From: Bdellovibrionota bacterium
GTDB taxonomy: Bacteria > Bdellovibrionota > UBA1018 > CAUJDS01
NCBI GenBank assembly: GCA_963169695.1
Contig: CAUJDS010000076.1
Coordinates: 14,452-46,451 of the forward strand
Reading direction: 5' to 3'
Length of the DNA stretch: 32,000 bases
The notes under the pieces were generated by a model. It worked only from the letters and a program-made list of their open reading frames with translations. It was not told the DNA's origin and did no database searches. Below are positions 5,059-21,699 of this stretch, one piece after another. The position numbers and the translations under genes are program-made. The number at the start of each line of letters is the position of its first letter. Position 1 is the first letter of the stretch.

Positions 5059-5237
5059 AATAAAATCCTTAACTTATATCCAAGCACCAGTATTCCCGAC
5101 AAAAACAGTCTTATAACAAGATTCTCGCAGTGAGTCCAGAATTTTCTGGCTTCCTCGAAGTCCCGAATCCATTGAGTTTTATACCATACTAAAATTGACC
5201 GTTATTTACAGTTGTGCTAAGCAAAGCCGAGGTCCAA

Positions 5238-8174
5238 ATGAGCCGCTACTTAAAAAACTGTCTCACCGCCCTCCTTCTCAGCTTGGTTTTGAACGCTGGC
5301 AATGCAACGTCAGCCCACGCAGTTCCTTTTGACGAAGGATTCTACTCTTTTTGGGAAGAAGCACTTCCTCTGGATAAGATTCAATCCAAATACGGCATTG
5401 CTATATCTCGAGAAGCACTCGCCAAAGCCGGCTCCTCGATAGTCAAATTTCAGATCCCTTCACTACCGGGATACTCAACCGGTAGCTTTGTTTCTTCCCA
5501 AGGATTGATCATCACCCATTCTGCAATGGCTGAGCTTTGCCTGCAGGGGTATCAAGAAAAGCACGCGAACTTTAAAATTTCAGAAGAAGGTTTTTTTGCC
5601 AAGCACCTCACAGAAGAAGTTCCTTGCCCTGGCATGGTAGTGACTCGCGTGCACGCTGAATCCGATGTGACCAACGAGATCGAATCAACTTTCGAAATCT
5701 TTCGCAGCCTTATTTCTCGACCCATGTATGGTCCTCCCAATCCACATCCCACCTCTCCTTGGGATGACGATGTGGACTGGCAGGCTTTTCAATTCGACGA
5801 GCCGCAACTTCCACTGGACTCAGCTCAAAGTAATCCTGTCATTGGACCTCTGCTGCCCAAGGATGCCCCGAAAAAGGTATCCCCGCTCAGTGTGATGGTT
5901 TCTCACATCGGCATGGAGGACTATATTGACGTCCTTCTCTCGGATGAATACTCTGCCCTTCCAGAATCTGGATTGGATCCAGCGATGGCCGAAGACGTAA
6001 AAATACTCAAAGAAATGTCGGGTGCTTTGAAAAGTGGCCAATTTGATGTTGATCTCGAAGCTGAAGGAGCCTATCAGGCAGCTCTGTATAAGGACCAGGT
6101 AAAGAAGACACTGCTCGGCCAACCCAGCGCAGTAACTGCAATTCACAAGGCCTTTGAGTTAATTCTGAACTGCGAAGGAATCGAACCTTCCAAATGGAAT
6201 CCCACTCAGTATTGGGATGAATTCACGGCACAGACTGAGCACTGCCAGCTGAAACGATACAAAGACAGCATGGGAAATCGCAACTTTGCGATCGTTAAGT
6301 ACGACACGCTTCGTGATATCCGACTGGTCGCAGTACCGTCACCCGGAGCATTAGCATTGAGCAAAAAAGTACCACCAGGAACCGTGCCGGCTATTCGAAT
6401 GGATTTCTCTATTTTTCGAGCCTACGGAATGGAGAATGGCCTTCTACCGAACGTTCGAATGGGAGAAAGCCTTGGCACACTCAAAGAGGTGGCAACCCTT
6501 GGGTCCATCAACAGCGTCCTGACTCCAAATGAATCCAATCGACCCTTGAATTCCTCAGAGTTCTTTCTCCCTCCGCAGTTTGATTCCAAAATGGAGGAAG
6601 GAAATTTTTCGATGACCCTAGGGCATCCTATGGAATTTGATCGTCAAAAAAATTACTTTCAATTTAAAATTCTGGTGGAATCCAAAATTCCGGCCGCGCT
6701 AGGAAACGTAGAAGCCATGATTCCAAGCTTACGAGCCAAAGTCTATGAACTTGCAAGTGACCCGAGTCCTAAAGGTAAAAAGCTCTACCAGGAAGCGCTC
6801 GCTGCCTATCAAAGCAATTTGAAATTTCGCGATGCCTACCAAGCACTTGCCAAAGAACTCGTTCAACCGAATTATCTCGAACGCAGGAATGAACTCATTC
6901 AAGAAATTAAGTTAGCAGCTGAAAAGAACCCAGAAGATGCTCAGGCGAAGACTACCTTGGAACAAGTAAAAAAGGCTCAGGACCTCACCGAAGAGTATCA
7001 AAAGATTTATCCCTTCTACTTTCTTGTTTTTGAGTGGCTAAATAGCGGCGTGGTCCAACCCATCAATACCTTATTGGACGTTCAGGAACAAATTGCGGCT
7101 ATTTCCAACAAACTCAAATCTGACGAAGATCGAGATGAACTTCTGAGGACCATTCTCCCAAAATTTTCCAAAATAAAATCTGCCCTCTTGGGCATTCCCC
7201 TTGCGTCTTACAAACAGGTCATCAGTCAGAAACTTCTTAGCTCCATCCTCGTGATGGCCAGAAAGAAAGAAGTCCCCGTCTTTACCGAACACTTCAAGCC
7301 ACAGGAGGGTATTGAGGTAGTGGCTATTGCTCATGACTTGTTGAATGTGTACCCAATATTACAAATCGACACCTACCCCGATATAGAATTGATGTCTGAG
7401 AAATGGCAGCCAATTTCTCCAAAAGCCAAAGAGCTCGTTTCCTTGATCCGCCAGATCAGGAGAATTTTTACAGCTATTGACACTAAAATGAAGAAAATCG
7501 CAAAGGAGCTCGGGAGTCTCAGCGAGGAACTGCGAGTAGTTGATAGGTATGGAATTATTGAGACGTCGGTACCTAATCGATTGCCACGATTTAGTTATGG
7601 AACGATTCGTGGGACGGAATCCACCCCAGCAGTAATGAAGGCATCTTACCTCAAGGAGAATGCGATTGCCTTTGCTCCCCTCAAATCTGCAGAGAGGTCT
7701 CTCGCTAGAGACCTCATTGAAAAATTGGGAGAAACTCCTTACTTGTTTCAATCGGATGCCGATACGCTGACCGGTTTTGATTTTCCGGATCTTGGAATTG
7801 AGCACGAGTACTACTACCCTGGAGGTATGGCACTTGTGGATGAGCACTTCCGGTGGCATGGACTTCAAGTAGATACGAACAGTGAAGCAAGGGCCAATGT
7901 GTTTGAATATAGCGGTGATCAATCTGCGAGGGCTATTGTATTGAGTGCAAATGCAATCATGGGGTATTTGGACCTCAATGCAGACGCAAAAAGATTGAAG
8001 GAAGAACTAACTTATTCCACCAAGGGAAGAGGTTACTTTGAGTCTACAGAGAGTGGAAAATCTGAATGGTGCCTTTTGGAAACTCCTAAGATAACAGGTC
8101 AAGAGAATAAGAAAAATCAGAACTCCTCAGGGAAGAGCTCTGACTGCAGTACCGATTTAATCAAAATAAAGTAG
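5238..8174 (+). CDS. S46 (DPP7/DPP11)-family peptidase-like protein, possibly catalytically inactive
   Basis: Signal peptide; YSTGSFVSSQGLIITHSAMAELCLQGYQEKH...EGFFAKHLTEEVPCPGMVVTRV matches the S46 N-terminal pattern; FSMTLGHPMEFDR; ATG at 5238 follows an AGG-containing RBS (the track start at 5214 is a GTG). Confidence 0.65.
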   Translation: MSRYLKNCLTALLLSLVLNAGNATSAHAVPFDEGFYSFWEEALPLDKIQSKYGIAISREALAKAGSSIVKFQIPSLPGYSTGSFVSSQGLIITHSAMAELCLQGYQEKHANFKISEEGFFAKHLTEEVPCPGMVVTRVHAESDVTNEIESTFEIFRSLISRPMYGPPNPHPTSPWDDDVDWQAFQFDEPQLPLDSAQSNPVIGPLLPKDAPKKVSPLSVMVSHIGMEDYIDVLLSDEYSALPESGLDPAMAEDVKILKEMSGALKSGQFDVDLEAEGAYQAALYKDQVKKTLLGQPSAVTAIHKAFELILNCEGIEPSKWNPTQYWDEFTAQTEHCQLKRYKDSMGNRNFAIVKYDTLRDIRLVAVPSPGALALSKKVPPGTVPAIRMDFSIFRAYGMENGLLPNVRMGESLGTLKEVATLGSINSVLTPNESNRPLNSSEFFLPPQFDSKMEEGNFSMTLGHPMEFDRQKNYFQFKILVESKIPAALGNVEAMIPSLRAKVYELASDPSPKGKKLYQEALAAYQSNLKFRDAYQALAKELVQPNYLERRNELIQEIKLAAEKNPEDAQAKTTLEQVKKAQDLTEEYQKIYPFYFLVFEWLNSGVVQPINTLLDVQEQIAAISNKLKSDEDRDELLRTILPKFSKIKSALLGIPLASYKQVISQKLLSSILVMARKKEVPVFTEHFKPQEGIEVVAIAHDLLNVYPILQIDTYPDIELMSEKWQPISPKAKELVSLIRQIRRIFTAIDTKMKKIAKELGSLSEELRVVDRYGIIETSVPNRLPRFSYGTIRGTESTPAVMKASYLKENAIAFAPLKSAERSLARDLIEKLGETPYLFQSDADTLTGFDFPDLGIEHEYYYPGGMALVDEHFRWHGLQVDTNSEARANVFEYSGDQSARAIVLSANAIMGYLDLNADAKRLKEELTYSTKGRGYFESTESGKSEWCLLETPKITGQENKKNQNSSGKSSDCSTDLIKIK

Positions 8175-8274: not shown

Positions 8275-9102
8275 TTAGAGCAATTGCAACGCTTTATTAG
8301 GCGCTGAATTTGCTTGAGCTAGAACGGAGATTCCTGCGTGGCTCAGAATGTTCTCACGAGTGAGTTCTGAGGTTGCAAGAGCGATGTCCGTGTCTGCAAT
8401 TCGGCTGCGAGCTTGAGACTGCATTTCTTGAGAAATTCTCAAGTTATTGACCGATGATTGCAGCTTATTCTGCATGGCTCCAAGGTTAGCTCGACCGGCA
8501 TTGAGCCTGTCGAACGCCTTGTCCACTGATTCGAGCATCTCTCTAGCTGAATCCTTAGATTCGGTAGAGGCACCATTGATTCCCAATGTATCCGTGCTGA
8601 GATCGTTCTCGCTGACTTTGAATACGACGCGAGACTCTTCACCCGATCGGATACCAACTTGGAACTCAAGGTCCTTGCCGCCACTGCTAAGCAGAGGAGT
8701 ACCGTTGAATTCTGTAACTTTTGCTATGCGATCTACTTCATCCTTCAAAGACTGAACTTCTTTGTCGATGAAACCTCGCTCGGTGTCGCCAATGGTGTCC
8801 GAAGCAGCTTGAATCGCAAGTTCGCGCATACGAACGAGGATGTTGCTAGCTTCAAACATTCCACCTTCTGCTACTTGCACGAGAGAAATGCCGTCATTCG
8901 CATTTCTTTCTGCTTGAGCAGTGGATCGCAACTGAGCACGCATGTTTTCACTAATGGACAAGCCTGCGGCATCGTCACCAGCATTGATGATTCGATTTCC
9001 TGAGGCAATTCTTTGATATTGCTTCGATTGCTTTTCACCCGTAGACGCCAATTGTCTTTGAGTTGCCAGCGAAGCGGTATTGGTCGCTATTCTTAAGCCC
9101 AT
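8275..9102 (-). CDS. fliC: Flagellin
   Basis: MGLRIATNTASLATQRQL...QRIASGNRIINAGDDAAGLSISENMRAQLRS; NDGISLVQVAEGGMFEASNILVRMRELAIQAASDT; C-terminal SRIADTDIALATSELTRENIL. Confidence 0.97.
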   Translation of the reverse strand: MGLRIATNTASLATQRQLASTGEKQSKQYQRIASGNRIINAGDDAAGLSISENMRAQLRSTAQAERNANDGISLVQVAEGGMFEASNILVRMRELAIQAASDTIGDTERGFIDKEVQSLKDEVDRIAKVTEFNGTPLLSSGGKDLEFQVGIRSGEESRVVFKVSENDLSTDTLGINGASTESKDSAREMLESVDKAFDRLNAGRANLGAMQNKLQSSVNNLRISQEMQSQARSRIADTDIALATSELTRENILSHAGISVLAQANSAPNKALQLL

Positions 9103-9483: not shown

Positions 9484-10314
9484 TTAGATTAGCTTGAGAG
9501 CTAACTGACTATTGGCGTTCGCTTGACCGAGGACCGACGTACCAGCGTTAGCAAGAATGTTATTCTTGGTAAGCTCAGATACTTCAGACGCGATGTCGGC
9601 ATCATAGATGCGACTTCGGGCAGCGGACAAGTTTTCGTCATAGATCTTCAAGTTGTTGATGCTCGACTCTAATCGATTCTGAAGTGCACCCAGGTGAGCG
9701 CGGTTTTCAGAAAGTTTAGAGATCGACTTGTCGATCATGTCTAGGTTGTTTTGAGCAGACTCTTTCGTTAGTGCCGAGACATCGGAGAGTCCCAGTGACT
9801 CAAGTCCGGTCTGTGTCTCAGTCGTATTGTAGACGAAGCGGTCATGCTCTGGGTTGTTATGTGTACCCACTTGGATTTCAACAATACCACCTTCACCCGA
9901 AAGCAAGGCACGGCCGTTGAATTCCGTCGTCTTAGAGATACGATCCACTTCATTCTTCAACTGCTGAACCTCCTTGTCGACAAAGCCTCGCTCGGTGTCG
10001 CCAATCGTGTCAGAAGCAGCCTGAATAGAAAGCTCTCTGAAACGAATCAGAATATTTCCAACTTCGTTGAGGCCCCCTTCAGCTACTTGAACCATCGATA
10101 CGCCGTCTTGGGCGTTTCGAACGTCCTGACGAATCGAACGAACTTGCGCTCGCATTGTTTCAGAAATCGCCAAGCCAGCGGCATCGTCAGCAGCTCGAGT
10201 AATTCGAGCACCTGATGCCAATCGCTCTTGAGTACGACCAACTTGATTGTTGGTGTTACCAAGATGACGCTGCGCAGCAATTGACTGCGTATTTGTCGCA
10301 ATTCTCATTCCCAT
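9484..10314 (-). CDS. fliC: Flagellin (second paralogue)
   Basis: MGMRIATNTQSIAAQRHLGNTNNQVGRTQERLASGARITRAADDAAGLAISETMRAQVRS; C-terminal SRIYDADIASEVSELTKNNIL; start moved to the ATG at 10312-10314 because GGAG lies 5 nt upstream (track start 10320 is a GTG too close to the RBS). Confidence 0.97.
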   Translation of the reverse strand: MGMRIATNTQSIAAQRHLGNTNNQVGRTQERLASGARITRAADDAAGLAISETMRAQVRSIRQDVRNAQDGVSMVQVAEGGLNEVGNILIRFRELSIQAASDTIGDTERGFVDKEVQQLKNEVDRISKTTEFNGRALLSGEGGIVEIQVGTHNNPEHDRFVYNTTETQTGLESLGLSDVSALTKESAQNNLDMIDKSISKLSENRAHLGALQNRLESSINNLKIYDENLSAARSRIYDADIASEVSELTKNNILANAGTSVLGQANANSQLALKLI

Positions 10315-10421
10315 ACACACTCCTATAAAGAAGTATACATACCAAATTACTTTGGTATATTTACTATTTGTTTCGATAATTTACTGGATATGCTGTACCC
10401 AGAAAAACCATCTTGTTGACT

Positions 10422-10477: not shown

Positions 10478-11278
10478 CTAGAGATCAGAGAACTCGGGGT
10501 CAATTTCTAAGCCTGCTTCGACATCCCAGTTGGTATCGAATTCATCGACCGGATCCTGGGCCATTGCCGAGCCGGAAGTAGGACTAGGCGCTGCAACCCT
10601 AGCTGGAGCCACAGGGGTCGGCTCTGCCATTACTGGAACACGAAGCCCGTACTTCTCAAGCACTGACCCGGTCTGTTCAGCTGGCCGTCTCCAAATCGAA
10701 GAAGGATCTGGGCCCGTCTCAACTAGAAGCGCGGTCATATCAGGCGAAAGCGTTAGTGACTGGTAGAAAACTTGTTCACTCAATTTGCGATACTCGTGGA
10801 TCGCCCAACGAAGGTAACGAGTGTCTTGAAATTCCTTCTGAAATGCTCGAGCAGTAGGAATCAAGGTGCTAAACGCCGACAAAACCTGTTTCTGCTTTTC
10901 GAGTATAGATTCCGTTTTTTCTAGCGAGGTGTGCAACTGCCTAAGGCCATCATAAAAGCACCAGTGCGCCTTGACGGGTTCATCAGCCACCCACTCCAGG
11001 GCACCTCGATCTCTTTCGTCCCGACTGACGGTTTTCTCATTGAGTGTCTGGAGCACTTTCTCACACCCCTTCCAGACGTCCGGACTAGGGACGTCTGGGC
11101 CTAGGAATACCGCTTCCAGATCAGCCCACTCATACCCAGAAGGATGACGCACTCCGGCAATTTCCGGGACCACCGGAAGTGGCTCTAATGGCGGAACTTC
11201 CTTCGTAGTCGAGCAAGACGCTATGGTAAATCCAATGCTCATCATCAGGAACAATCTAGCAATTTCAGATAGATACAT
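10478..11278 (-). CDS. Putative lipoprotein of unknown function, likely flagellar/motility regulon
   Basis: MYLSEIARLFLMMSIGFTIASCSTTKEVPP: signal peptide plus lipobox; start assigned at 11278 because the sigma-28 -10 box ends just upstream of the annotated 11299 start. Confidence 0.65.
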   Translation of the reverse strand: MYLSEIARLFLMMSIGFTIASCSTTKEVPPLEPLPVVPEIAGVRHPSGYEWADLEAVFLGPDVPSPDVWKGCEKVLQTLNEKTVSRDERDRGALEWVADEPVKAHWCFYDGLRQLHTSLEKTESILEKQKQVLSAFSTLIPTARAFQKEFQDTRYLRWAIHEYRKLSEQVFYQSLTLSPDMTALLVETGPDPSSIWRRPAEQTGSVLEKYGLRVPVMAEPTPVAPARVAAPSPTSGSAMAQDPVDEFDTNWDVEAGLEIDPEFSDL

Positions 11279-11300: not shown

Positions 11301-11328
11301 TTATCGGCAAAACCTTGACGCAGATTGA
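11301..11328 (-). promoter_or_regulatory. Sigma-28-like promoter for the lipoprotein gene
   Basis: Perfect GCCGATAA -10 on the minus strand (plus TTATCGGC at 11301-11308) with TCAA 16 nt upstream. Confidence 0.65.
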
Positions 11329-11411: not shown

Positions 11412-12599
11412 ATGATGTTTTTCAAAATGAACGTCGCAAGCGGTGCGAAAATTTCTCTCTTTTTTGGGATGGCGGTATTCCTTTTGCACCTCTTTGCCTA
11501 CGCTGGCGACGACACAAGCCCCGCAATTAATCCTCCAGCGGAAGAACAACAACTTCCAAAATCCGAGGGAGCAAAATCGCAACTGAAAGCTCCAGCAACC
11601 AGTACTCACAGCAGAAATTTCTATCAAGTCCTGGAAGATGTACTTGGGGATTTTGAGTACGACCTCAACAATGGGCAAGTCCAAGGCCTAAAGGGGCTCG
11701 CGATACGCTCTATTGCCACCAGTGAAAACGTACCACCTTCATTCAAAGACCACATTGACCTCTTGATCAAAGAACGCGTTTTGAGTTCAACCAAGAACAA
11801 GATCATTAATTGCATTCAGTGTCGTTCTCAAAATGCCGTACTCAACGGAGACCAAGTTACCATCTCATCTCCGCAATCCAATCCTGCAGAGCTCAATCGG
11901 ATTGCCAAACAAATGGGCATCGATCACTTCATGGACGTCGCATTTGCCTACCAACCGAATGGCCTCATTTTATCGCTCAGTATTTCTGAAACGGACGGCA
12001 GTGATTCCGTGATTTGGTCACGAAGTTACAACTCTGAAACCTCGCGAGCGTCAGCATTTCGAAGAGGGGTTGACTACAACCAACTCGACGAAGCCAGAAA
12101 GAGCGTTGAGTACCAGCCGACCGTAGTGTATCGCCCAACGCTTTACTACCTCTTTGAGAACGATACGACGGGTTACGTGGGCACACTGGGCTTCGCTTTC
12201 CGAATGGTGGAACGCTATGACAACCGCAAAAAAGAAGTGGGATTTGAACTGAACTACCTCATGGACAGCGGATCTCTTGTCGGAAGCACGAGCACTTCTG
12301 ACTCTGTTTTTCGCAGCTTCAATATTACGCTCTTATTTGTTCATTCCTGGAATTTGATCGGTGACGTTGAATCTTACAATCAGGTGAGAGGCAGCGTCTT
12401 CACTGCAGTAGGAGGCACTTACGGATCAGGTTTCCTTGGAGCAGTTGTTCGTGGTGGATATGAGTGGCGCCTAGGCAAGCATTGGGCAGTGCAGGGTCTT
12501 TTGGGGTACCGTCCACAGGCTTCAAAATTTCTAAACGGGGTAGCATCTGGGTCCGTTTCTGGCTTTGAATTCGGAGTGGGGATCAGTGCACTGTACTAA
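11412..12599 (+). CDS. Predicted exported protein: N-terminal soluble domain (possibly CsgG/FlgO-like) plus C-terminal outer-membrane beta-barrel-like domain
   Basis: Signal peptide ...ISLFFGMAVFLLHLFAYA; alternating amphipathic glycine/aromatic segments in the C-terminal half ending in ...SGFEFGVGISALY. Confidence 0.6.
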   Translation: MMFFKMNVASGAKISLFFGMAVFLLHLFAYAGDDTSPAINPPAEEQQLPKSEGAKSQLKAPATSTHSRNFYQVLEDVLGDFEYDLNNGQVQGLKGLAIRSIATSENVPPSFKDHIDLLIKERVLSSTKNKIINCIQCRSQNAVLNGDQVTISSPQSNPAELNRIAKQMGIDHFMDVAFAYQPNGLILSLSISETDGSDSVIWSRSYNSETSRASAFRRGVDYNQLDEARKSVEYQPTVVYRPTLYYLFENDTTGYVGTLGFAFRMVERYDNRKKEVGFELNYLMDSGSLVGSTSTSDSVFRSFNITLLFVHSWNLIGDVESYNQVRGSVFTAVGGTYGSGFLGAVVRGGYEWRLGKHWAVQGLLGYRPQASKFLNGVASGSVSGFEFGVGISALY

Positions 12600-13299
12600 G
12601 AAGATCATACTCGCACTCAAGCTCTTCGGACTTTACGCACTTGGCGCCACAGCATGCTCGTCTATCCTAAGTTCATCCGATGATGGACAAGCTGGCGCAC
12701 CGATAGACAATCCTTTTGGAAATTTTTATGAGGAATCCAATAAATCCAATCAGGGCGTCATTTTGCGCTCCCGCAAAGGGGCTCAGACCGTCGAAGTAGA
12801 ACTCCCAAAAGAAGGCCACGACCGTACAAACTTTGTCATACCTATGACTGCCGGATCTTTTCAACCACCGGCCAACCAAACGGCTAGTGCCCAAAACTAT
12901 TCTCATTACCGCTCCGGCCTATCCGACCGAGAAATTGCCGGGACTTTTCCAAAAGGAAGCCCCGAGCAAGTCCAAAAACGTTCTGAAATGGAACGAGATT
13001 TGGGTCTTATTCCTTCTCAGAATGATTCTCCAACCAACGATCAAAGCTATTTGGGATCCATCGATCAAGTGAAGATTCTGTATCGTCAGGGCCGGTACGA
13101 GGCTGGCCTTATTGAAATTGACCAGATACTGCGCCGCTATCCAACGGATCCGAGACTGCACGAAATGCGTGGCACTCTTTTGGATCGAATGGGCCAAAAG
13201 GAACTGGCCCGACAAGCTTGGAATCAGTCCTTAGAACTTGAACCCAATAACGAAGGACTCAAGAGATTTCTCACTCGTAGAATTGCGAGCAAACCATGA
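12586..13299 (+). CDS. TPR-containing lipoprotein
   Basis: ALKLFGLYALGATACSS lipobox; TPR-like IKILYRQGRYEAGLIEIDQILRRYPTDPRLHEMRGTLLDRMGQKELARQAWNQSLELEPNN (first residues read DQVKILYRQ...); start assigned to a GTG preceded by GGGGA rather than the upstream ATG at 12565. Confidence 0.6.
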   Translation: MHCTKKIILALKLFGLYALGATACSSILSSSDDGQAGAPIDNPFGNFYEESNKSNQGVILRSRKGAQTVEVELPKEGHDRTNFVIPMTAGSFQPPANQTASAQNYSHYRSGLSDREIAGTFPKGSPEQVQKRSEMERDLGLIPSQNDSPTNDQSYLGSIDQVKILYRQGRYEAGLIEIDQILRRYPTDPRLHEMRGTLLDRMGQKELARQAWNQSLELEPNNEGLKRFLTRRIASKP

Positions 13300-15608
13300 A
13301 GATAAGAAATCTAGTTTCGCTTCTTGTGGCGTCCATGCTAATTTCTTCCACTTCATTCGCAACACCAGAAGCATCGCTTGAAGCACTCAATCTCAAGACC
13401 AATGACGAGGTTTTGAAAATCATAAAACCTCTCATGGATAAGTACTGCAAGGACAGCTGCCAGGTACTCAGCGCAAAGCCTGAAATTAAACTTCAAGACA
13501 CCGAAGAAACCGCACCCGGATTTGATGAAATCGCGCCACAGGAAGCCCTCAATTACAAGCCAGCCCTGGTGACTGTAGATGTTCTGGTAGATGAAATTGT
13601 AGGTCAAGTCACCCTTTCGCATCTTTTTGGTATCATACAAGAACACCTGAGCATACTTCCGTACCCTGTTATCTTGAATGAAAGGCGCAAGAAATTCCCG
13701 CAACCCTTGACGTCTGTTCAAAAAATGGCGGAACTGCGCAATAAAGTGGCCACGGACTTTCGGCAGAAAATTGAAGAGCTTTTTCGTGAATTCTGTCCGA
13801 AACAATGTATTCTGGCAGACCTAGATGTTTCATTGCAACAGCGCAATTTAGAAGAAGCCCAATACAACGCTAGCGGAGAATACATTACGGACGGAGATAC
13901 CTCTGCCAAGATCAATAAAATTTCCGGCCAAATTCTCTTCGATACGACCCTTACTCCGGATGAACAAACCGCCATCTTCGAAATGGCTCAACTCAAAACT
14001 AATTCCTACAAAAGCGTCAATCTTCAAGCAAAGAGCCGCTCTTTTCCCCATCCCGAACCCTATTCGGAAGATGGTTCGAATTTGGCATATGGTCGCATGG
14101 GCGGCAAGTACAGAGGATTGAGTTCGCAAGAGAGCAAGACTCAGAAGTCTGACTCAAAGAATTCTCAGCAGACGGATCGCAGGCTTTCTTCTTCGAGCAA
14201 TAACTCTCAGACGAATCAATCCAACAGTAAGACATCACAAGAATCCCAATTCAATAAAACTCAAAACGAAAGTGCCGAGAAATCCGAAAGTTATCAACGT
14301 ACTGAGCGAATTGAGCGAGTTGAAAGTGGCGACGCGGTTCAGGCCGAATTGAAGCGGCTTTCTGTATGGGGAGTCATCTTTGCGTGTTCAGTGCTTTCTC
14401 TTCTCATCTTTATAGCATTGGCCACCTATGCACCACGATCCAAGAAATCGAGCGAAAATTCACTTCTGCAGTGGATCCAAAAGTCGCCTAAAGGATCAAA
14501 AGAGCAGCTACCAGCCAAGACTGGGCCTAAGTCATCCAATGATTCCATTGCGCGTCGCTACGAAATTGACAACCTCATAGATGAATTGACTAGGATCTTT
14601 GCAGAACATCCCAAGGTTGCCAAGCACGCCTTCACTAGAGTTCTCACGGAAGAAGGAGTCGAAATCACAGCCGCCTATATATCAATCTTGGGCGAAAGCA
14701 TCGTACTTGATCTCCTCAAGGATCCCAGCCTGCAGAATGACGTCAATGAACTCACCGAATACTACGCTAAGAACACGCTGGAATTGAAAGACGAAGATAA
14801 ACTCGAGCTGCTCAAGAAGCTTCACAATCGTGCAATTGCATCTAAGCTTCAAGTGATTGGCAATCGCTCTTCTAACGCATTTGATTTCTTAGTGGAGATG
14901 GACGGCCTTCAAATTCTTGAAATGATTCAGAATGAATCCCTTACAGTAAAGGCAATCGTACTAACTCAATGTGATACGCAAAAGCGAGCTATTATCTACT
15001 CACACTGGGACGACGACGCTCGCGCCAAGATTCTAAAAGAATTATCTCGAATTGATCACCTTCCTCGAAATTATATTTATAACGTTTCTAATGCTCTACG
15101 TCGAAAGCGGCAAGACAATCCTCGCCTCAATACCGAGGCCCTTCCTGGTTCCGAAGTACTGGTGGGCCTATTAGAAAAGTCTTCCTTTGGGCAGCAACAA
15201 CAAGTCGTGATGGACCTAGAACAGAACAATCCTGAGAGTGCACGCGTACTCAAGAGCAAACTTGTTAGCATCGACACGCTACGCTACCTCCGCGACTCCC
15301 AGTTGCTCGAAGTCGTGCTCAGTCTCAAACACGAGGAGCTGCTTGCATTCCTCAAGGGCGCACCAGACCATATTCGCAAAACCATATTTGACAAGTCACC
15401 CAAAGATTTGGCCGAGGAAATTCAGGATGAGTTGACCATGGTCAGTCCGCTCAACCGCGACACCTACCAGGTAGTGGAACGTAAGATTCTCAATCGGGTA
15501 CGCCTCATGGCAAACGACGGACTCATCAATCTCATTGAAACCAACGAACGCATGTTTGCCGAAAGTCCCGCCAACCATGCCGGAGCTAGGAGGGCCGCAG
15601 GATGGTAG
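13296..15608 (+). CDS. Membrane-anchored FliG-like protein: signal peptide, periplasmic region, S/N/Q-rich linker, one TM helix, cytoplasmic FliG middle- and C-terminal-like domains (FliF-FliG-fusion-like architecture)
   Basis: 770 aa; TM helix about residues 356-377; FliG_M-like FDFLVEMDGLQILEMIQNESLTVKAIVLTQCDTQKRAIIYSHWDDDARAKILKELSRI; FliG_C-like LKSKLVSIDTLRYLRDSQLLEVVLSLKHEELLAFLKGAPDHIRKTIFDKSPKDLAEEIQDELTMVSPLNRDTYQVVERKILNRVRLMANDGLI. Confidence 0.75.
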   Translation: MKIRNLVSLLVASMLISSTSFATPEASLEALNLKTNDEVLKIIKPLMDKYCKDSCQVLSAKPEIKLQDTEETAPGFDEIAPQEALNYKPALVTVDVLVDEIVGQVTLSHLFGIIQEHLSILPYPVILNERRKKFPQPLTSVQKMAELRNKVATDFRQKIEELFREFCPKQCILADLDVSLQQRNLEEAQYNASGEYITDGDTSAKINKISGQILFDTTLTPDEQTAIFEMAQLKTNSYKSVNLQAKSRSFPHPEPYSEDGSNLAYGRMGGKYRGLSSQESKTQKSDSKNSQQTDRRLSSSSNNSQTNQSNSKTSQESQFNKTQNESAEKSESYQRTERIERVESGDAVQAELKRLSVWGVIFACSVLSLLIFIALATYAPRSKKSSENSLLQWIQKSPKGSKEQLPAKTGPKSSNDSIARRYEIDNLIDELTRIFAEHPKVAKHAFTRVLTEEGVEITAAYISILGESIVLDLLKDPSLQNDVNELTEYYAKNTLELKDEDKLELLKKLHNRAIASKLQVIGNRSSNAFDFLVEMDGLQILEMIQNESLTVKAIVLTQCDTQKRAIIYSHWDDDARAKILKELSRIDHLPRNYIYNVSNALRRKRQDNPRLNTEALPGSEVLVGLLEKSSFGQQQQVVMDLEQNNPESARVLKSKLVSIDTLRYLRDSQLLEVVLSLKHEELLAFLKGAPDHIRKTIFDKSPKDLAEEIQDELTMVSPLNRDTYQVVERKILNRVRLMANDGLINLIETNERMFAESPANHAGARRAAGW

Positions 15609-16120
15609 GCACTTCAGAAGGAAAACCAACCTTAGAGATCCTGAAAAATATTCAGCTCTTTAAGGTTTTTACTGATTCGGAACTTCAACAGCTCCTTGCC
15701 ATGGGACAATCTGAATCGCACCAATCGTATTCTAATATTGTGATCGAGGGAGAGCTATCCTGGAGCCTCTATCTCATTCTCCAAGGCACCGTCGGCATCT
15801 TCAAGACTAATCCGCTTAGCGAGAACTCTTATGATATTGGCCAACTCAAAGAGGGAAGCTTCTTTGGCGAAATGTCTCTGGTCGATGAGAATGGCCGCTC
15901 AGCGACTGTAAGAGCACTAACCGATTGCGTTGTGTTTGTCATATCCAAGGAAGCATTTTCTACTTTTCTCAATAGCTCCACTGAACGACGTACTCGATTT
16001 TACGAAAAATGCATCAAGACTCTGGTCGATCGACTCCGAGAACTGAACGATGGATATGTGATCAGTCAGTATCAACTCTGGAAATCGGCGCTAAAAAAAG
16101 ATTCCGAGGAGGCCGCCTAA
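15602..16120 (+). CDS. Cyclic nucleotide-binding (Crp-like cNMP) domain protein without an evident DNA-binding domain
   Basis: ILKNIQLFKVFTDSELQQLLAMG...IVIEGELSWSLYLILQGTVGIFKT...IGQLKEGSFFGEMSLVDENGRSATVRALTDCVVFVISKEAF; 172 aa. Confidence 0.88.
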   Translation: MVGTSEGKPTLEILKNIQLFKVFTDSELQQLLAMGQSESHQSYSNIVIEGELSWSLYLILQGTVGIFKTNPLSENSYDIGQLKEGSFFGEMSLVDENGRSATVRALTDCVVFVISKEAFSTFLNSSTERRTRFYEKCIKTLVDRLRELNDGYVISQYQLWKSALKKDSEEAA

Positions 16121-16903
16121 ATGAACCTTTCATCATTCTTCGGTGTTTTGCTAGGAATTGGAATTGTCGTTGCAGCGATTCATGAAAGTGGAATGCAGGC
16201 TGCATTCTTTCTAAATTTTCATGGTGTGGTGATTGTCGTAGGTGGAACACTTGCAGCGGCAAGTATTAGTTTTCCACTCTCAAAAGTTCTATCTCTTCTA
16301 AGGGTATTTTTTCAACGGGTTCTAGGAAGGAATAAAATCGACTACCAATCGATCATTACCCAACTACTTGAGGCGAATCGAAAGTTCAACCTCGGTCAAG
16401 GGTCGGTAGCTGAGTTGACTGCTGGAATACAACACAGCTTCCTTAAGGAAGCGATTGAGCTTGCAGCAACAGGTGTCCTGACTCAAAAAGAAGTGAGGCA
16501 AGTCCTTGAGCAGCGTGTAAAAACTATGGAAAATCGCTATATGTACGAAGCCAATATGTTTCGTATCCTAGGGCGATTTCCTCCAGCGTTTGGACTGCTC
16601 GCCACAACCCTAGGAATGATAGCGCTACTACAAAATCTTGGTCAGCCTGGCGCAGAAAAGCTCATCGGACCAGCCATGTCTATAGGACTCGTCGGTACCC
16701 TCTATGGAATAGCACTAGCCAACCTCGTTTTTCTGCCCATCGCAGAGAATCTCACTGTGAGAACCAAGGAAGAAATGGAATTGCGTCGGATGATCATAGA
16801 GGGAGCTGTCTTACTTAAGGCGCAAGTGAACCCGATGTCTATGCGAGAGAGCCTCAATTCCTTCCTTGCACCAGGAGAGCGCGTACTGAGAAGGGCTGCG
16901 TAG
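16121..16903 (+). CDS. motA: MotA/PomA-like stator protein
   Basis: 260 aa; LLGIGIVVAAI..., FHGVVIVVGGTLAAASISFPLSKV; FRILGRFPPAFGLLATTLGMIALLQNL...AMSIGLVGTLYGIALANLVFLPIAENL, with prolines in TM3/TM4 positions. Confidence 0.9.
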   Translation: MNLSSFFGVLLGIGIVVAAIHESGMQAAFFLNFHGVVIVVGGTLAAASISFPLSKVLSLLRVFFQRVLGRNKIDYQSIITQLLEANRKFNLGQGSVAELTAGIQHSFLKEAIELAATGVLTQKEVRQVLEQRVKTMENRYMYEANMFRILGRFPPAFGLLATTLGMIALLQNLGQPGAEKLIGPAMSIGLVGTLYGIALANLVFLPIAENLTVRTKEEMELRRMIIEGAVLLKAQVNPMSMRESLNSFLAPGERVLRRAA

Positions 16904-16911
16904 GAACACCT

Positions 16912-17739
16912 ATGGCACTTTCATTCTTAAAAAAGAAGAATCCGGAATCGGATTCGTCGGAGAAACTGCCTGACCAGCCTCATGATTCTTATCAATCAGA
17001 AGGAGATGAATCCAATTGGCTGGTGTCCTACGCGGATATGATGACGCTACTCTGTGCTTTTTTCATCATGATGTTTAGTATGTCGACCCTGCAGACGCCA
17101 AAGTTCGAGAAGGCCAGGGAAGAGGTTTCAAAGCACTTTGGAGGCGGCTATGACAAGCCCAACGCCCAACTTTCTAAGGTGGTGCAAGATTCAATTGCTT
17201 CGGCCCAATTGGGTAAGGAAGTCACAGTAAGATCGAATCCGGCAGGTGTTTCTATAAGCTTTGAATCCACGCTCTTCTTTGACAGCCTAGGCGCGGCTGT
17301 CAAATCAGATGGCCAGAAAGTTCTCACAGAACTTGCTCGATCAGTCTTGAGATACGCCAAAGACCATCAAATGAAATACAAAATTGTAGTGGAAGGGCAT
17401 ACAGACGCTCAGCCCATCTTAAGCGGCACCTTTCTATCAAATTGGGAACTATCTGGCGCTCGAGCCTCTCGAGTGGTCGACATTTTCTTGGCCCAAGGAT
17501 TTCAACCCGCTGACTTCATGCCAGTAGGGTACGGATCGACCCGACCTCGTGAGCCAAGCCGAGATTCAAACGGAAACTGGATTCCAGAAAATCTTGCCAA
17601 AAATAGGCGTGTGGTCCTGCGCATCCTAGATTCACAAGAAAACTCCATCCCTTGGAATATGGACTTGGACCTAGCTATTGATCCGCCACCCGAATCGGCA
17701 AAGTCTGCCGCCATTGCGCTTCCACCCCCTTCTCACTGA
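16912..17739 (+). CDS. motB: MotB-like stator protein with OmpA-type peptidoglycan-binding domain
   Basis: NWLVSYADMMTLLCAFFIMMFSMST (candidate ion-binding Asp at 17035-17037); YKIVVEGHTDAQP...NWELSGARASRVVDIFL...VGYGSTRPREP...NLAKNRRVVLRI. Confidence 0.93.
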   Translation: MALSFLKKKNPESDSSEKLPDQPHDSYQSEGDESNWLVSYADMMTLLCAFFIMMFSMSTLQTPKFEKAREEVSKHFGGGYDKPNAQLSKVVQDSIASAQLGKEVTVRSNPAGVSISFESTLFFDSLGAAVKSDGQKVLTELARSVLRYAKDHQMKYKIVVEGHTDAQPILSGTFLSNWELSGARASRVVDIFLAQGFQPADFMPVGYGSTRPREPSRDSNGNWIPENLAKNRRVVLRILDSQENSIPWNMDLDLAIDPPPESAKSAAIALPPPSH

Positions 17740-17764: not shown

Positions 17765-18571
17765 ATGCGATGGAGTTGTCCGCATTGTAAAGTAAGTCAA
17801 AGTATTCCTGACGAACGAGTAGAGGGGGGCTGGTCTTTTGCTCGATGCTACAAGTGCAACGGATATTCTCTCGTGCGCAAGTCTGACGTCAAAACATTTA
17901 AAGTTGCACAACCACCCGAACAAGCCACCGTTCTCAATTCCCATCCCAGCGAAGTACCTCTCATGAGCCGAGAGGCTACTAACCATTTGCAATTGACACT
18001 GAAGAATGCGGCCATTCGATCCGAAAATTTTCAAGAACTGGCAAAGTCTCTTCAGAACCAAGAAGTGAATCAGACTAATGAGGGGCCAAAAAAAGCTATA
18101 AGCGAACGTATGCTTCCCTATGCCATTGGTCTTGCTGGAGCCCTCGCGCTCTTTTCCGGCGCCTACCTATTTATGGAGGGACAGTCTCTTTGGAATAAAG
18201 CACACCATGCAAGCCGAGAAGCCGATCCCATTCCAGTAGAACCTAGCATTGCAGCACCGATCAAAGATGAACTGAAAGAAGCAGCAATGGCCCCTGTTCG
18301 AGAGCCCGTACAGGAATCGGCTCAAGTACCGGAGACCGTCTTCAAACCGGAAGTCATTTATCGCTCTATCGTCATTAAGCCTCTTGCGGACCGCGTAAAT
18401 CTGCGGACTGAGCCAAACGTGCAGGCGGGTATATCCGGTACGGCGACACGTTCGGATCGCTTTACGGTACATCAATGGAAGAGCGACTGGTTTGAGGTTT
18501 CAAACGTGAAATTTCCGGATAAAAAATACTGGATCCGAAACGACTTCGTATCTGTAGCCGAAAATGAATAA
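17765..18571 (+). CDS. Zinc-ribbon (MJ0042-like) protein with TM helix and C-terminal SH3b-like domain
   Basis: MRWSCPHCKVSQSIPDERVEGGWSFARCYKCNGYSLVRK; MLPYAIGLAGALALFSGAYLFM TM; VIKPLADRVNLRTEPNVQAGISGTATRSDRFTVHQWKSDWFEVSN SH3b-like; start assigned to the ATG at 17765. Confidence 0.7.
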   Translation: MRWSCPHCKVSQSIPDERVEGGWSFARCYKCNGYSLVRKSDVKTFKVAQPPEQATVLNSHPSEVPLMSREATNHLQLTLKNAAIRSENFQELAKSLQNQEVNQTNEGPKKAISERMLPYAIGLAGALALFSGAYLFMEGQSLWNKAHHASREADPIPVEPSIAAPIKDELKEAAMAPVREPVQESAQVPETVFKPEVIYRSIVIKPLADRVNLRTEPNVQAGISGTATRSDRFTVHQWKSDWFEVSNVKFPDKKYWIRNDFVSVAENE

Positions 18572-18575
18572 ACAG

Positions 18576-20093
18576 CTACCGAGGATTCTGAGGCTTACAA
18601 AGCCAAACTGAGATTGCCTTGCCAGGTACACCCATTCGTTCTTGAATCGGCACAAGTTGATCTTCACAAAAGGAATTTCTGAAGCCAGGCCCTTGGGCAT
18701 AACGTTGGTCCGTAACGTAAATGACTGGTTCGATTAGTGCTGGCCAATCTGTACGGCGCTCTTCACTTAGACCAAGGTCTCTCCAATCCGAAGCTTCTCT
18801 AGCGTCTACTGGCAAGCGCGTTGCAGCGAATTCAGGACCAAGCGCCATAGCTGCTTGTGACAAAGTTTGGTAACGAGATCCGATGACAGGAAGTTGCGAG
18901 GAAAGCCCTTTTGACTTCAAAAATGAGGGAAGAAAGCCCCACCCTCTCAGGTCATTGGATGGATCATGGAGGGGATTAGGTATTTGATTCAAGACGTACT
19001 TCTCAGTCCATCCAACCAAGGGAAGGTGACAACCTAGAAAAACCAATGCGGTTAGAGCAATACTCACTTTCCAAAATCCCTTAAACAATCTATGGAGTGA
19101 AAGTCTTGACCAGTGAGTTGAAAAGAAAAGCATTAGCGGAAACCAAAAGGTCAAACTCCAATGAATTTTATAGTCCGAAAAAAAAGGTTGAAGCCCAAAA
19201 ACAAGAAATGCAGGGAAGAACCAAACCAGTAAATACCTCTGCTCTCTAGGAAGGGGCCACTTTCGACCTGTTCTCATTCGCTCCCAAAGTAACCGAGCCG
19301 AAAAAAGCATGAGAACGGGCCCAGCTACTAAAAATTGCAGAAGCCAAAATCGGAGACCCTGTTGAAGACGAAAGTGCCCCCCCGAGTGCCGCTCCGAAAG
19401 CTGGTAAGCAATAGGGCGCCAATCTTCCTGCCAATTCCAATAGAGCGTAGGCAGCAGTGATAAGCCGATTGATAAAATAGAGAGAAAAAGAAGCCGCTTC
19501 CACCGACCATGCTGAATAAGATTTTTTCTCCAGAGGATCAACGAACCAAAGGCACTGGCAGCTGGCAAGATTCCCGAAAATTTGGACAATAGGACCAAAG
19601 CATAGCCAGCAACGAGGAGAACTTCATTTTGCTTAGTGGGCTCACCCACGATTTCTGCCCAAACGGCGTAGATCAATAAACTCATTCCGAAAAACATCGG
19701 AAGGTCAGGAACACTCATCCACAGCCCCAATACAAATCCAGAGAAAGCAAATACACCTGCGAGCAATCCCCTGAAGGCTTCTCTTTCATCCCGCAAAACC
19801 AGACAGAGCCAGCGGTGGGCAAAAACCAAAATCCCAAAACTGCAAATAGCTGCCCCGAGGCGCATCAATCCGGGAGAAGTGGCAGACCACCCCAGGATGG
19901 CCCCAACCTTTTGAATGAAGTATTGAATCCAAAGTATCATTGGCGGGTGGTACGCAAATCCCCAGCGCCACTCACGAGAAAGCACCCAGTAATAGGCCTC
20001 ATCATCGGAGGGTCCAAGCATTGCCCCATGTAGCCACAGCAGCGTACACAGCCCAAAAAGTAAGTAGGTAGGTTTTTTAATGAAATGCGTCAT
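18576..20093 (-). CDS. Polytopic glycosyltransferase, GT39/ArnT-like (PMT_2)
   Basis: GPSDDEAYYWVLSREWRWGFAYHPPMILWIQYF N-terminal motif of the family and multiple TM segments. Confidence 0.8.
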   Translation of the reverse strand: MTHFIKKPTYLLFGLCTLLWLHGAMLGPSDDEAYYWVLSREWRWGFAYHPPMILWIQYFIQKVGAILGWSATSPGLMRLGAAICSFGILVFAHRWLCLVLRDEREAFRGLLAGVFAFSGFVLGLWMSVPDLPMFFGMSLLIYAVWAEIVGEPTKQNEVLLVAGYALVLLSKFSGILPAASAFGSLILWRKNLIQHGRWKRLLFLSILSIGLSLLPTLYWNWQEDWRPIAYQLSERHSGGHFRLQQGLRFWLLQFLVAGPVLMLFSARLLWERMRTGRKWPLPREQRYLLVWFFPAFLVFGLQPFFSDYKIHWSLTFWFPLMLFFSTHWSRLSLHRLFKGFWKVSIALTALVFLGCHLPLVGWTEKYVLNQIPNPLHDPSNDLRGWGFLPSFLKSKGLSSQLPVIGSRYQTLSQAAMALGPEFAATRLPVDAREASDWRDLGLSEERRTDWPALIEPVIYVTDQRYAQGPGFRNSFCEDQLVPIQERMGVPGKAISVWLCKPQNPR

Positions 20094-21067
20094 CGAAATA
20101 CGAAATTTCCGGCCTCAGCTCCTATAGCTGGATTGTAATCCGGAACTCGAAATTCAACCACTGCATGCATCCCTTTTTTAAAGGCTTCCCAATAGGAGTT
20201 GGCTTTATCGGGATTGGCAGTAGGCAACTCAAGTGTCAACGTAGGAATACCCCGCTCCTGTCCTGCGTAATTGCCGAGAGAACCTACAAAGTAGCCACCA
20301 GAAACGGCATGGACCTTCGATCGAAGTCGCAAACACTCCCGAACATAATCGTTTGGAAATCGCTTTAACGTCAAAACATTGGGGCCATCATAATCCATAA
20401 AATTCAAAGGCGCGTGAATGGAAAGGATCTTGTTAGGGCGAAAACGGTAAATCAAATTTCTCTGAAAAATGGTTTCCGGCTCTGAATTGGGCGATGCCCC
20501 TGGATTTCGTCGCGGATCAGATCGAAATCGCTGCTTCCATAAAGCCAATGCACTCTTCTTCCAGTCTCGCGTATGAAAATTGCGATTCAAATCCACGCCT
20601 CTCGCATTATATCTCGTTCTCTTATCAAGATAGAAGCCATCTGGATTTACCAATGGTGCAATGATGACTCTCGCTCCCGGTGAATCCTGTGGATGAAGAT
20701 GAAGCCACTCAATGAGCTTGAGGCCCAGGTACAATGGCGTATTTTCATCCGGATGCACCATGGTCAGAACCAGTGTCGTATTATCCGAATCCTCAGGGCC
20801 AAACTCAAAATAGACAAGTGGCCTGCCTAGAATGGATTGGCCACCGACACGAAAAAGGTCCTTGCGAACGCAAACTGGAACCTTCCACCCAAAATCCTGA
20901 ACAGCTTTCTCTAAATTCTTGCACCAGACTTCTCTCTGAGCTTCGAGCTGAGCAGCTTCCTCTCGAGCCCAATTAGGCGAATGGTTACTGCCACCAAAGG
21001 CTAGGTAAGGAATAAAATTTCCAAAAAGGATTCCTAATAGCGCGGCACGACCAAAAGTCCGTCTCAT
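20090..21067 (-). CDS. M14-family zinc carboxypeptidase, murein tripeptide amidase MpaA-like
   Basis: TMVHPDENTPLYLGLKLIEWL (HxxE), LVNPDGFYLDKRTRYNARGVDLNRNF, SIHAPLNF; start assigned to MRRTFGRAALLG at 21067 (4-bp overlap with upstream gene). Confidence 0.75.
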   Translation of the reverse strand: MRRTFGRAALLGILFGNFIPYLAFGGSNHSPNWAREEAAQLEAQREVWCKNLEKAVQDFGWKVPVCVRKDLFRVGGQSILGRPLVYFEFGPEDSDNTTLVLTMVHPDENTPLYLGLKLIEWLHLHPQDSPGARVIIAPLVNPDGFYLDKRTRYNARGVDLNRNFHTRDWKKSALALWKQRFRSDPRRNPGASPNSEPETIFQRNLIYRFRPNKILSIHAPLNFMDYDGPNVLTLKRFPNDYVRECLRLRSKVHAVSGGYFVGSLGNYAGQERGIPTLTLELPTANPDKANSYWEAFKKGMHAVVEFRVPDYNPAIGAEAGNFVFR

Positions 21068-21675
21068 TTTACAATATTCCGACGATTGGCAAGCCACTTT
21101 GACACGAAGAAAACTCCAACTAGTAAAATGGTGATCCAGATACCATACTGTGCTTTGCGAATGATTCGAATGACTTTGTCGACGTGCTCACCGAAGTAAT
21201 AGAGCGCATAGACAATCAATGGAACACTGATCAAGGCTGCAATTCCATCGTAAAAAATAAAAACACGAAAGCGCATATGCATCAGACCCGAGGTAAAATA
21301 AATGGGCGCGCGTAGTCCGGGCATAAAGCGAGCAGTGAAAATGAATTTATTTCCGTGAGTCCGAATCCGCTCTTTGATGACTCTTTCGCGACTAGGAGTC
21401 AGAAGGTTCTTAAATGGCCATCGCTTCAGTACTTTTTTTCCATAGGCCGCACCCAGCCAAAAAACAAAGCTATCGCCAATCAAAACTCCAAAAAGCGACA
21501 CCAAGACCATGAGGTGATGATTCGCCTTGCCGTAGTAGGCAGAAAGACCCGCCGCAAAGAGCGTCACGTCCTCAGGAATAGGTAGACCCAGCCCGCACGC
21601 AAGTAGGATGGCAAATACAATGAGGTAAGGAACAGGACCCTCGAGGCCCAATAGAAAGGTAACTAACTTATCCAT
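21064..21675 (-). CDS. DedA-family membrane protein
   Basis: GLGLPIPEDVTLFAAGLSAYYG; FVFWLGAAYGKKVL; FTARFMPGLRAPIYFTSG. Confidence 0.85.
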   Translation of the reverse strand: MDKLVTFLLGLEGPVPYLIVFAILLACGLGLPIPEDVTLFAAGLSAYYGKANHHLMVLVSLFGVLIGDSFVFWLGAAYGKKVLKRWPFKNLLTPSRERVIKERIRTHGNKFIFTARFMPGLRAPIYFTSGLMHMRFRVFIFYDGIAALISVPLIVYALYYFGEHVDKVIRIIRKAQYGIWITILLVGVFFVSKWLANRRNIVK

Positions 21676-21699
21676 GAGTTGATTCTCTGTTCTACTGGG

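Follow-up and report, generated by a model that had tools for sequence, protein, structure and literature searches.

A membrane-anchored FliG-like protein with ring-building-type repeats, encoded beside MotA and MotB in uncultured Bdellovibrionota

The interface between FliG and MotA is known as the torque-generating contact of a single machine, the flagellum, and cultured members of the genus Bdellovibrio have canonical flagellar gene sets. In the canonical rotor, which is driven by MotA5B2, FliF and FliG are separate proteins and FliF carries three ring-building motifs (RBM1-3). Here we describe a gene in a 32,000-nucleotide stretch of DNA from a Bdellovibrionota bacterium (assembly GCA_963169695.1, contig CAUJDS010000076.1, positions 14,452 to 46,451 of the forward strand; this whole stretch is called the window) whose product resembles a fusion of FliF and FliG. 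Like the canonical rotor, it is predicted to combine a periplasmic ring-building-type fold, a transmembrane (TM) anchor and the N, M and C domains of FliG with a charged torque helix, and MotA and MotB proteins with plug and peptidoglycan-binding domains are encoded alongside. It differs in being one polypeptide, with two duplicated RBM-like domains in place of RBM1-3, no match to FliF sequence models and an 80-aa disordered tether, and its gene module is without genes for FliM/FliN or the export gate and contains instead genes for an outer-membrane barrel protein, lipoproteins and a protein that binds cyclic nucleoside monophosphates (cNMP).

Joined forms of FliF and FliG have been described before. 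The Chlamydiaceae encode a natural FliF-FliG fusion of about 330 aa in which a TM helix separates two RBM-type domains from a FliG_M-like tail, FliG_C being absent (Bergeron 2016, PMC4768692), and the only chlamydial flagellar genes listed are fliF, fliL and flhA (PMC4768692). This precedent was overlooked in a first-pass annotation of the window, which described canonical FliF and FliG as separate proteins. Compared by description, the chlamydial protein and ours are both natural single chains, with an N-terminal signal or TM segment, two RBM-type domains, a TM helix and a FliG-like region; the chlamydial protein, which in its organism does not belong to a standard flagellum, has only the FliG_M-like tail and its RBMs have sequence similarity to SctJ/FliF, whereas the present family has a predicted FliG N, M and C, an adjacent stator and dedicated envelope partners. 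Engineered or deletion-derived fusions (in Salmonella, and the Vibrio FliFG of PDB entries 8z4d/8z4g) show that a covalent link is compatible with ring assembly and rotation (PMC11481574). Note that these are end-to-end joins of the canonical proteins in a complete flagellar motor, and that only the FliG part of 8z4d matches the present fusion by sequence.

Other systems share single elements with the fusion. In the E-ring proteins FlgY, FlbB and MotE, armadillo-type (ARM) domains of the FliG/MgtE kind (MgtE_N) form rings in flagellar motors (PMC13023049), and FlbB resembles the fusion in having a transmembrane motif together with an ARM-like domain; in E-ring proteins, however, the ARM domain is periplasmic and without FliG_M/FliG_C identity or a torque helix, whereas the FliG-like part of the fusion is predicted to be cytoplasmic. 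SctJ/SctD and SpoIIIAG/AH have the alpha-beta-beta-alpha-beta ring-building fold beside a TM helix but no FliG module and no stator, and their structural matches are weaker than those of FliF. By analogy only, the module recalls TonB-ExbBD, Tol-Pal and the Myxococcus Agl-Glt machinery, in which an ion-driven inner-membrane motor and a tethered, periplasm-spanning protein are combined with outer-membrane barrel, lipoprotein or TPR partners in gliding or predatory lineages; there the ExbB/TolQ-type motor contacts a TM helix, whereas the present module has a flagellar-type stator and a cytoplasmic FliG torque interface. In the literature, which we covered incompletely, we found no account of a full FliG that is anchored in the membrane and encoded together with MotAB and outer-membrane partners. 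A natural FliF-FliG fusion has a precedent in itself, but the conserved module, which occurs in predatory bacteria, is undescribed in the literature covered.

Architecture of the fusion protein

The open reading frame (ORF) at 13296-15608 (+) has an ATG start and encodes a product of 770 aa. The whole protein was modelled with AlphaFold2, with a mean predicted local distance difference test score (pLDDT) of 77, about 90 inside the folded domains, and a predicted template modelling score of 0.32, which is expected for folded domains joined by flexible linkers. It was also aligned with 55 full-length homologues (alignment A1, 56 sequences). The features of the gene are as follows.

13296-15608, + strand: fusion protein, with signal peptide, two RBM-like repeats, disordered linker, TM helix and FliG-like N-M-C module
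13296-13364, + strand: signal-peptide-like N-terminus, aa 1-23 (…LISSTSFA/TP), poorly conserved (0.21); read from the sequence
13365-13691, + strand: periplasmic repeat 1, aa 24-132, helix, long beta hairpin, helix and strand, with invariant C51/C55 and APGFD at the hairpin tip; from AlphaFold2, hhalign and invariant columns
13707-14039, + strand: periplasmic repeat 2, aa 138-248, topology as in repeat 1, with invariant C167/C171 and an EEAQYG motif; from AlphaFold2, hhalign and Foldseek
14061-14303, + strand: disordered tether rich in S/Q/N/T, aa 256-336 (with low complexity and predicted disorder reaching aa 342), approximately 80 residues, poorly conserved and variable in length; pLDDT below 50, conservation 0.19
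14304-14429, + strand: conserved juxtamembrane segment (aa 337-355) with the motif ERVExGDAVQAEL (337-353), and TM helix (aa 356-378); from invariant columns, hydropathy and a predicted helix at 344-378
14535-14867, + strand: FliG_N-like helical domain and long connecting helix, aa 414-524; from Foldseek and a weak PF14842 match
14910-15119, + strand: FliG_M domain, aa 539-608, with ESLT at the EHPQ position (nt 14934-14945); from Pfam and alignments
15213-15533, + strand: FliG_C domain, aa 640-746; from Pfam and alignments
15393-15461, + strand: torque-helix equivalent K700-S-P-K-D-L-A-E-E-I-Q-D-E-L...N-R-D, within FliG_C; from alignments

The first-pass annotation had described a single 770-aa chain with a signal peptide, a periplasmic part, one TM helix and a cytoplasmic part, and our analysis confirms this arrangement together with all of its coordinates, with signals well above what chance would give. 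Outside the N-terminus, the sole 19-residue window with a Kyte-Doolittle mean above 1.6 falls at residues 352-381, which gives a helix at about residues 356-378 (nt 14361-14429). An acidic juxtamembrane motif (E337, E340-E343, G345 and D346 are invariant in alignment A1) runs straight into this helix, positively charged residues (PRSKK) come right after it, and four cysteines are invariant in the periplasmic part, one CxxxC pair in each repeat. Because the two hydrophobic segments bracket the four invariant cysteines and positive residues follow the TM helix, the predicted topology puts the repeats on the periplasmic side of the membrane and the FliG-like module on the cytoplasmic side. The cytoplasmic module starts about 35 poorly conserved residues past the TM helix (a second linker, residues 379-413), and residues 414-755 are all-helical in the AlphaFold2 model.

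Pfam searches placed FliG_M (PF14841) at aa 539-608 with 33.3 bits (cut-off 25) and FliG_C (PF01706) at aa 640-746 with 55.4 bits (cut-off 23.3; E 8e-15), in agreement with the FliG_M-like and FliG_C-like blocks noted earlier at nt 14880-15107 and 15150-15530; the LKGAP...IRKTIF...NDGLI pattern cited for them is likewise in the sequence. Both models are matched at E <= 1 by 56 of 56 homologues. With phmmer, the PDB matches included Thermotoga maritima FliG (1lkv, E 2.4e-12) and full-length Aquifex aeolicus FliG (3hjl, query residues 471-745 against residues 49-326). Moreover, when the predicted structure of the cytoplasmic part was compared with the PDB by Foldseek, 319 of the 321 residues of full-length FliG 3hjl were aligned (E 3e-8), and Salmonella FliG from cryo-electron microscopy structures of the C-ring was matched too; FliG_N (PF14842) gave weak matches in 9 of the 56 homologues (best E 0.0086). 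Since nearly all of 3hjl is covered, the cytoplasmic part as modelled corresponds to a whole FliG, with N, M and C domains, and not to M and C alone, as had been proposed: M and C are indeed present, and a probable N domain has to be added to them.

Consistent with the initial proposal, the alignment has ESLT (547-550) at the position of the FliM-binding EHPQ motif; E547 and T550 are invariant in the 56 homologues and S548 is nearly so. The MFXF switch hinge is lost, MFVF of T. maritima being aligned with LVSI (656-659). Among the best conserved segments is the torque helix, with the consensus K700-S-P-[KR]703-[ED]704-L-V-x-E708-L-E710-E711-E712-L…S-R721-E in the 56 sequences. Here the equivalents of Escherichia coli K264 (K687) and of the acidic pair D288/D289 (D711/E712; E/D in 56/56, E in 53/56) are kept, but the R281 position is acidic (D704; E/D in 56/56, with a basic K/R703 just before it) and the R297 position is occupied by N720 (S/N across the family), with the near-invariant R721 adjacent. 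A change of the charged torque residues from 'DDR' to 'RDS' had also been proposed; the alignment of LDDRSIQ to LRDSQLL (664-670) is correct, but these residues are not the torque-generating charges. In addition to the differences at EHPQ, MFXF and R281, the fusion is predicted to be membrane-anchored, whereas canonical FliG is soluble.

The periplasmic region is a tandem duplication of an alpha-beta-beta-alpha-beta domain of approximately 110 aa (repeat 1 against repeat 2: hhalign probability 96%, E 8e-10), and DSSP assignments on the models (pLDDT about 90) give both repeats the topology of an RBM. We modelled residues 24-262 separately with AlphaFold2 (pLDDT 85) and searched the model against the PDB with Foldseek. 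The top three matches were FliF chains of the MS-ring (7bk0_B, E 1e-7; 6scn_A, 2e-6; 8t8p, 5e-6), and lower in the list came entries for the RBM3/collar of FliF and two ring proteins of injectisomes, YscD and CdsD. The sequence searches returned no significant match to FliF. In particular, PF01514 (YscJ_FliF) matched 0 of 56 full-length and 0 of 23 N-terminal sequences at permissive thresholds (E <= 1-10), a profile of the N-terminal region searched against the PDB found no FliF and nothing relevant, the FliF half of the Vibrio fusion 8z4d scored -3.9 bits, and hhalign against Salmonella FliF (sequence checked against 6scn, 1224 bits) gave a non-significant E of 0.08-0.14 with profiles whose number of effective sequences reached 6. 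Membership in the FliF sequence family was therefore rejected. The best hhalign match of each repeat, itself non-significant, was to FliF 241-293, which we take to be the first helix and strand of RBM3, at the start of the beta-collar.

The periplasmic region and FliF also differ in their domain count: the fusion has two mutually homologous domains, each with a long beta hairpin, against three distinct RBMs in FliF. No separate FliF C-terminal segment was seen in the fusion, although no test was aimed at one. What can safely be said from the models is that the periplasmic repeats are domains of the ring-building-motif type whose closest solved relatives are in FliF. The earlier suggestion that a ring anchor and a rotor face are joined in one chain thus survives insofar as FliF MS-ring chains are the best structural matches and a FliG module is present. 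It does not survive as a canonical fliF/fliG gene fusion: there is no FliF sequence match, two duplicated domains stand against RBM1-2-3, the FliG equivalog model TIGR00207 scores 63.7 bits, far below its cut-off of 226.7, and the operon is one of MotAB and envelope genes as opposed to fliE-F-G-H.

The gene module and its distribution

We found more than 150 full-length homologues with 45-58% identity, all from metagenomes or metagenome-assembled genomes (MAGs) labelled Bdellovibrionales, Bacteriovoracaceae or Oligoflexia; some of the carrier MAGs bear the genus label Bdellovibrio, and the best existing annotation is 'FliG C-terminal domain-containing protein'. A scan of one genome per species found the fusion in 73 species-level genomes of uncultured Bdellovibrionota. 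The gene order conserved among 77 loci is divergent lipoprotein, barrel protein, TPR lipoprotein, fusion, cNMP-binding protein, MotA, MotB and a zinc-ribbon/TM/SH3 protein. Apart from the fusion gene, the module in the window consists of the following.

10478-11278, - strand: divergent lipoprotein, family unknown; 57 of 77 loci
11415-12599, + strand: secreted protein of about 394 aa, whose N-domain (CxxC) is conserved and whose C-terminal part is a small beta-barrel ending ...GISALY/F, an outer-membrane signature; 66 of 77 loci
12586-13299, + strand: TPR lipoprotein with the lipobox ...ATAC/SS; 71 of 77 loci
15602-16120, + strand: stand-alone cNMP-binding protein of 172 aa with an FGE...RSA cassette; 66 of 77 loci
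16121-16903, + strand: MotA, flagellar-type stator A subunit; adjacent in 72 of the 73 loci with enough sequence
16912-17739, + strand: MotB with plug, TM Asp (YADMMTLL) and OmpA-like peptidoglycan-binding domain; from Pfam and reading of the sequence
17765-18571, + strand: zinc-ribbon/TM/SH3 protein, frequently the last gene of the module; 49 of 77 loci

The genes around the fusion are tightly packed: the stop of the TPR gene overlaps the start of the fusion gene, the stop of the fusion gene overlaps the start of the cNMP-binding gene, and the stop of the latter abuts the start of the MotA gene. MotA matches flagellar stators over its full length, about 250 residues (8ucs/6ysf, E 7e-32; PomA, 2e-29). 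Its E-values against the MotP/PomA/MotA models are 1e-41 to 1e-35, with scores below the equivalog cut-offs, and that against ExbB is only 0.015. MotB scores 59.6 bits with MotB_plug and 47.5 bits with OmpA. (A basic pair and an acidic residue of MotA lie near the positions of PomA R88/E96-97; because of an indel there the alignment is ambiguous, and charge co-variation between MotA and the torque helix is not claimed.)

The single exception to the rule that MotA follows the fusion, in the loci that extend far enough, is L011 (361-5600), the sole such locus with enough sequence in which the cNMP-binding, MotA and MotB genes are missing between the fusion and the zinc-ribbon/SH3 gene. One subclade (about 39-41% identity) lacks the cNMP-binding gene and retains everything else. 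No flagellar structural or export gene belongs to the conserved core of the 77 loci, and no genes for a type III secretion system, FliM, FliN or a second FliG were found in the approximately 1 Mb of DNA that flanks these loci, which was the part of the genomes covered.

An observation that concerns both the fusion and its neighbour is that aa 547-550 read ES[LMV]T where the cNMP-binding gene is present and ESNT in the subclade without it (ESHT in L047). The correlation is a small one; it might mark a candidate binding site for the cNMP-binding protein.

An exhaustive profile search with the periplasmic domain returned 129 clusters at the 50%-identity level, and all full-length proteins with this domain that were scanned with Pfam have a FliG-like C-terminus. 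Variants of about 970 aa occur in Silvanigrellales, and variants of about 570-610 aa have a single repeat, one related fragment being labelled Persicimonas, a genus of Bradymonadales. The labels not of the MAG style among the relatives are 'Persicimonas sp.', 'Silvanigrellales' and 'Oligoflexaceae'. A Silvanigrellales-like locus (L078) encodes a homologue of the barrel protein (E 2e-28), a TPR lipoprotein, MotA, MotB and the fusion (28% identity over 785 residues), and in the one-repeat subfamily, seen in the Bradymonadales-like locus L079 and on the P0223 contig, MotA and MotB come before the fusion, which is followed by two unknown genes. Moreover, L079 (6226-8295; GC content 67%) encodes a 689-aa protein in which the N-domain of the barrel protein (E 4e-17) and the TPR domain (E 2e-18) are joined in one chain; judged from these matches, it is a domain-fusion link between the window genes at 11415-12599 and 12586-13299. 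MotAB stays next to the fusion in all of these rearranged variants, which are roughly 28% identical. That the association outlasts a change of gene order and deep divergence is the main argument that the fusion, MotAB and the two envelope domains form a functional unit.

Possible roles: rotor-type element, motor accessory or regulator

We favour the reading, to which we give a probability of roughly 45%, that the fusion is the rotor-type component of an envelope module which is conserved, consists of flagellar-motor parts and is distinct from the canonical basal body. The most economical interpretation is that it serves as the rotor-type protein for the adjacent stator, and from this we infer that it forms a ring and contacts MotA. 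Subunits would assemble through their RBM-like domains and the stacking of FliG ARM domains; the adjacent MotA5B2, anchored in peptidoglycan by MotB, would use ion flow to push on the FliG_C face; and the movement would pass through the membrane anchor and the tether to a periplasmic ring and on to the outer-membrane and TPR partners. There would be no switch complex, since EHPQ and MFXF are lost, and control would fall instead to the cNMP-binding protein, which is a plausible regulator. Candidate outputs in the cell would be surface motility, predation or envelope work.

A bolder form of this reading, which we regard as somewhat unlikely, is that the module is a self-contained rotary machine without type III secretion, in which a FliF-like/FliG-like ring turned by its own MotAB is coupled through the tether to a complex of the outer-membrane barrel and TPR proteins, and which is put to a use other than turning a filament in Bdellovibrionota and Bradymonadales. 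Surface gliding, prey entry and envelope remodelling would be conceivable uses, and such a machine might have been derived from the flagellar rotor-stator pair by reduction, or be a relic of that pair. In any case the module has real potential to be a separate machine. If so, the same rotor-stator pair would be at work in a far simpler setting, in which a single rotor protein and a single stator work with new outer-membrane partners and without an export gate or a FliM/FliN switch. It would offer a minimal system in which to study how MotA5B2 turns a FliG ring, and would be relevant to the question of how rotation of the flagellum originated, or was put to new use, apart from type III secretion. 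The module also suggests that predatory bacteria have a so far unstudied function in motility or the envelope, and it is a warning that not every motAB pair in genomes of the Bdellovibrio type should be counted as a flagellar stator.

Several findings weigh against assigning the fusion to a rotor outside the flagellum. The 80-residue disordered tether is a poor torque shaft. The FliF matches of the periplasmic model have a TM-score of only about 0.3, and the fold of a single repeat resembles OsmC and the C-terminal domain of MamM as well. By pairwise scores, the MotA proteins of the three subfamilies resemble one another no more than they resemble PomA or Clostridium MotA, and joint descent of stator and fusion is therefore not claimed. 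Finally, flagellin genes adjoin the module in 23-24 of 77 loci, and also the distant one-repeat variant on the P0223 contig, and known carrier lineages are flagellated, namely Persicimonas (PMC7188933) and Silvanigrellaceae (PMC7386786); these two facts leave room for a role inside the flagellar motor.

Such a role is the basis of the chief rival explanation, in which the fusion, the TPR lipoprotein and the barrel protein would form an extra ring or scaffold round the basal body that recruits, positions or gears flagellar MotAB, by analogy with PflA/PflB, MotX/Y or the FlbB/FlgY E-ring. Besides the flagellated carriers and the flagellins at other loci, it draws on the fliD gene and two flagellin genes just upstream of the module in the window, on the canonical flagellar type of MotAB, on the 1-4 motAB pairs of Bdellovibrio and like organisms, all of which have been assumed to be flagellar (PMC11323537), and on the Campylobacter-type motors that scaffold their stators with TPR proteins, B. 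bacteriovorus having a PflA-like protein (PMC5758724). The divergent lipoprotein gene is preceded by an exact sigma-28 -10 box, which would fit as well but is at chance level and conserved in only 7 of 44 loci. A static FliG_C face outside the rotating MotA pentamer would moreover oppose rotation, the conserved core is without flagellar structural or export genes, and no flagellar gene lies within 8-10 kb in L078 and L079. On balance we consider the accessory role unlikely.

YcgR-type brakes that act on MotA/FliG are established, and they provide a precedent for a second alternative, that the fusion is a regulator or decoy: a membrane-tethered mimic of FliG that captures MotAB through the torque-helix interface and withholds the stators or lets them go, as a clutch or parking device under cyclic-nucleotide control. 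The conservation of the FliG_C surface while the FliM-binding and switch motifs are lost is in keeping with this, as is the translational coupling of the cNMP-binding protein to the fusion. However, the duplicated periplasmic domains, the full FliG-like N-M-C module and the outer-membrane barrel and TPR partners would be left unexplained, and a whole subclade has lost the cNMP-binding gene yet keeps everything else, so that we think this alternative improbable.

Finally, the strong form of the original proposal, that the fusion is the organism's actual flagellar MS-ring and rotor in place of separate FliF and FliG, is very improbable. In its favour, one chain does unite a fold and topology of the FliF kind with a complete FliG-like module, fusions of FliF and FliG engineered in Salmonella and Vibrio are functional (PDB 8z4d, PMC11481574, PMC4768692) and flagellins are nearby. 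Against it, the FliF sequence signal is absent, the duplicated domains number only two and sit on a long disordered tether, the FliM-binding EHPQ is missing even though FliM/FliN are required for flagellar export and switching, the context is not fliE-F-G-H, and some carrier MAGs are labelled Bdellovibrio, whose cultured members have canonical flagellar gene sets (PMC11323537). The fusion is thus probably not the flagellar rotor itself.

Neighbouring genes and minor observations

An anti-phage reading of the module (Zorya/Pycsar) was rejected, as there is only generic similarity of MotB and of the cNMP-binding domain: among the Zorya models, MotA had no ZorA match, MotB matched ZorB only, and the other module proteins matched none.

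The fliD gene (1207-2616) and the two tandem flagellin genes (8275-9102 and 9484-10320) upstream of the module are all on the - strand. The exact sigma-28 -10 box GCCGATAA lies at 11301-11308 (-); the divergent lipoprotein gene has its called start about 24 nt downstream of it, and a TCAA candidate for the -35 element stands at 16-nt spacing. It is the single exact copy in the window, where 0.86 would be expected by chance, and of 44 related loci only 7 have CCGATA at the corresponding position. The first + strand gene has no sigma-28 promoter before it, and the box before the divergent gene is at chance level and poorly conserved, so that a flagellar promoter of this kind was rejected for the operon.

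The zinc-ribbon/TM/SH3 protein at 17765-18571 combines an N-terminal zinc ribbon of the MJ0042 type (CPHC...CYKC) with a TM segment and, at the C-terminus, a bacterial SH3 domain. Beyond it, a block on the - strand (18576-22623) encodes a 505-aa polytopic membrane protein, an M14 carboxypeptidase, a DedA/VTT protein and a XerC/D-type recombinase; it adjoins the module in 26-39 of 77 loci, which could reflect either a functional linkage or plain synteny. On the other side, the gene at 5214-8174 (+) encodes a 986-aa protein, unrelated to the fusion, whose N-terminal portion matches peptidase S46 (dipeptidyl-peptidase 7-like) over part of its length.

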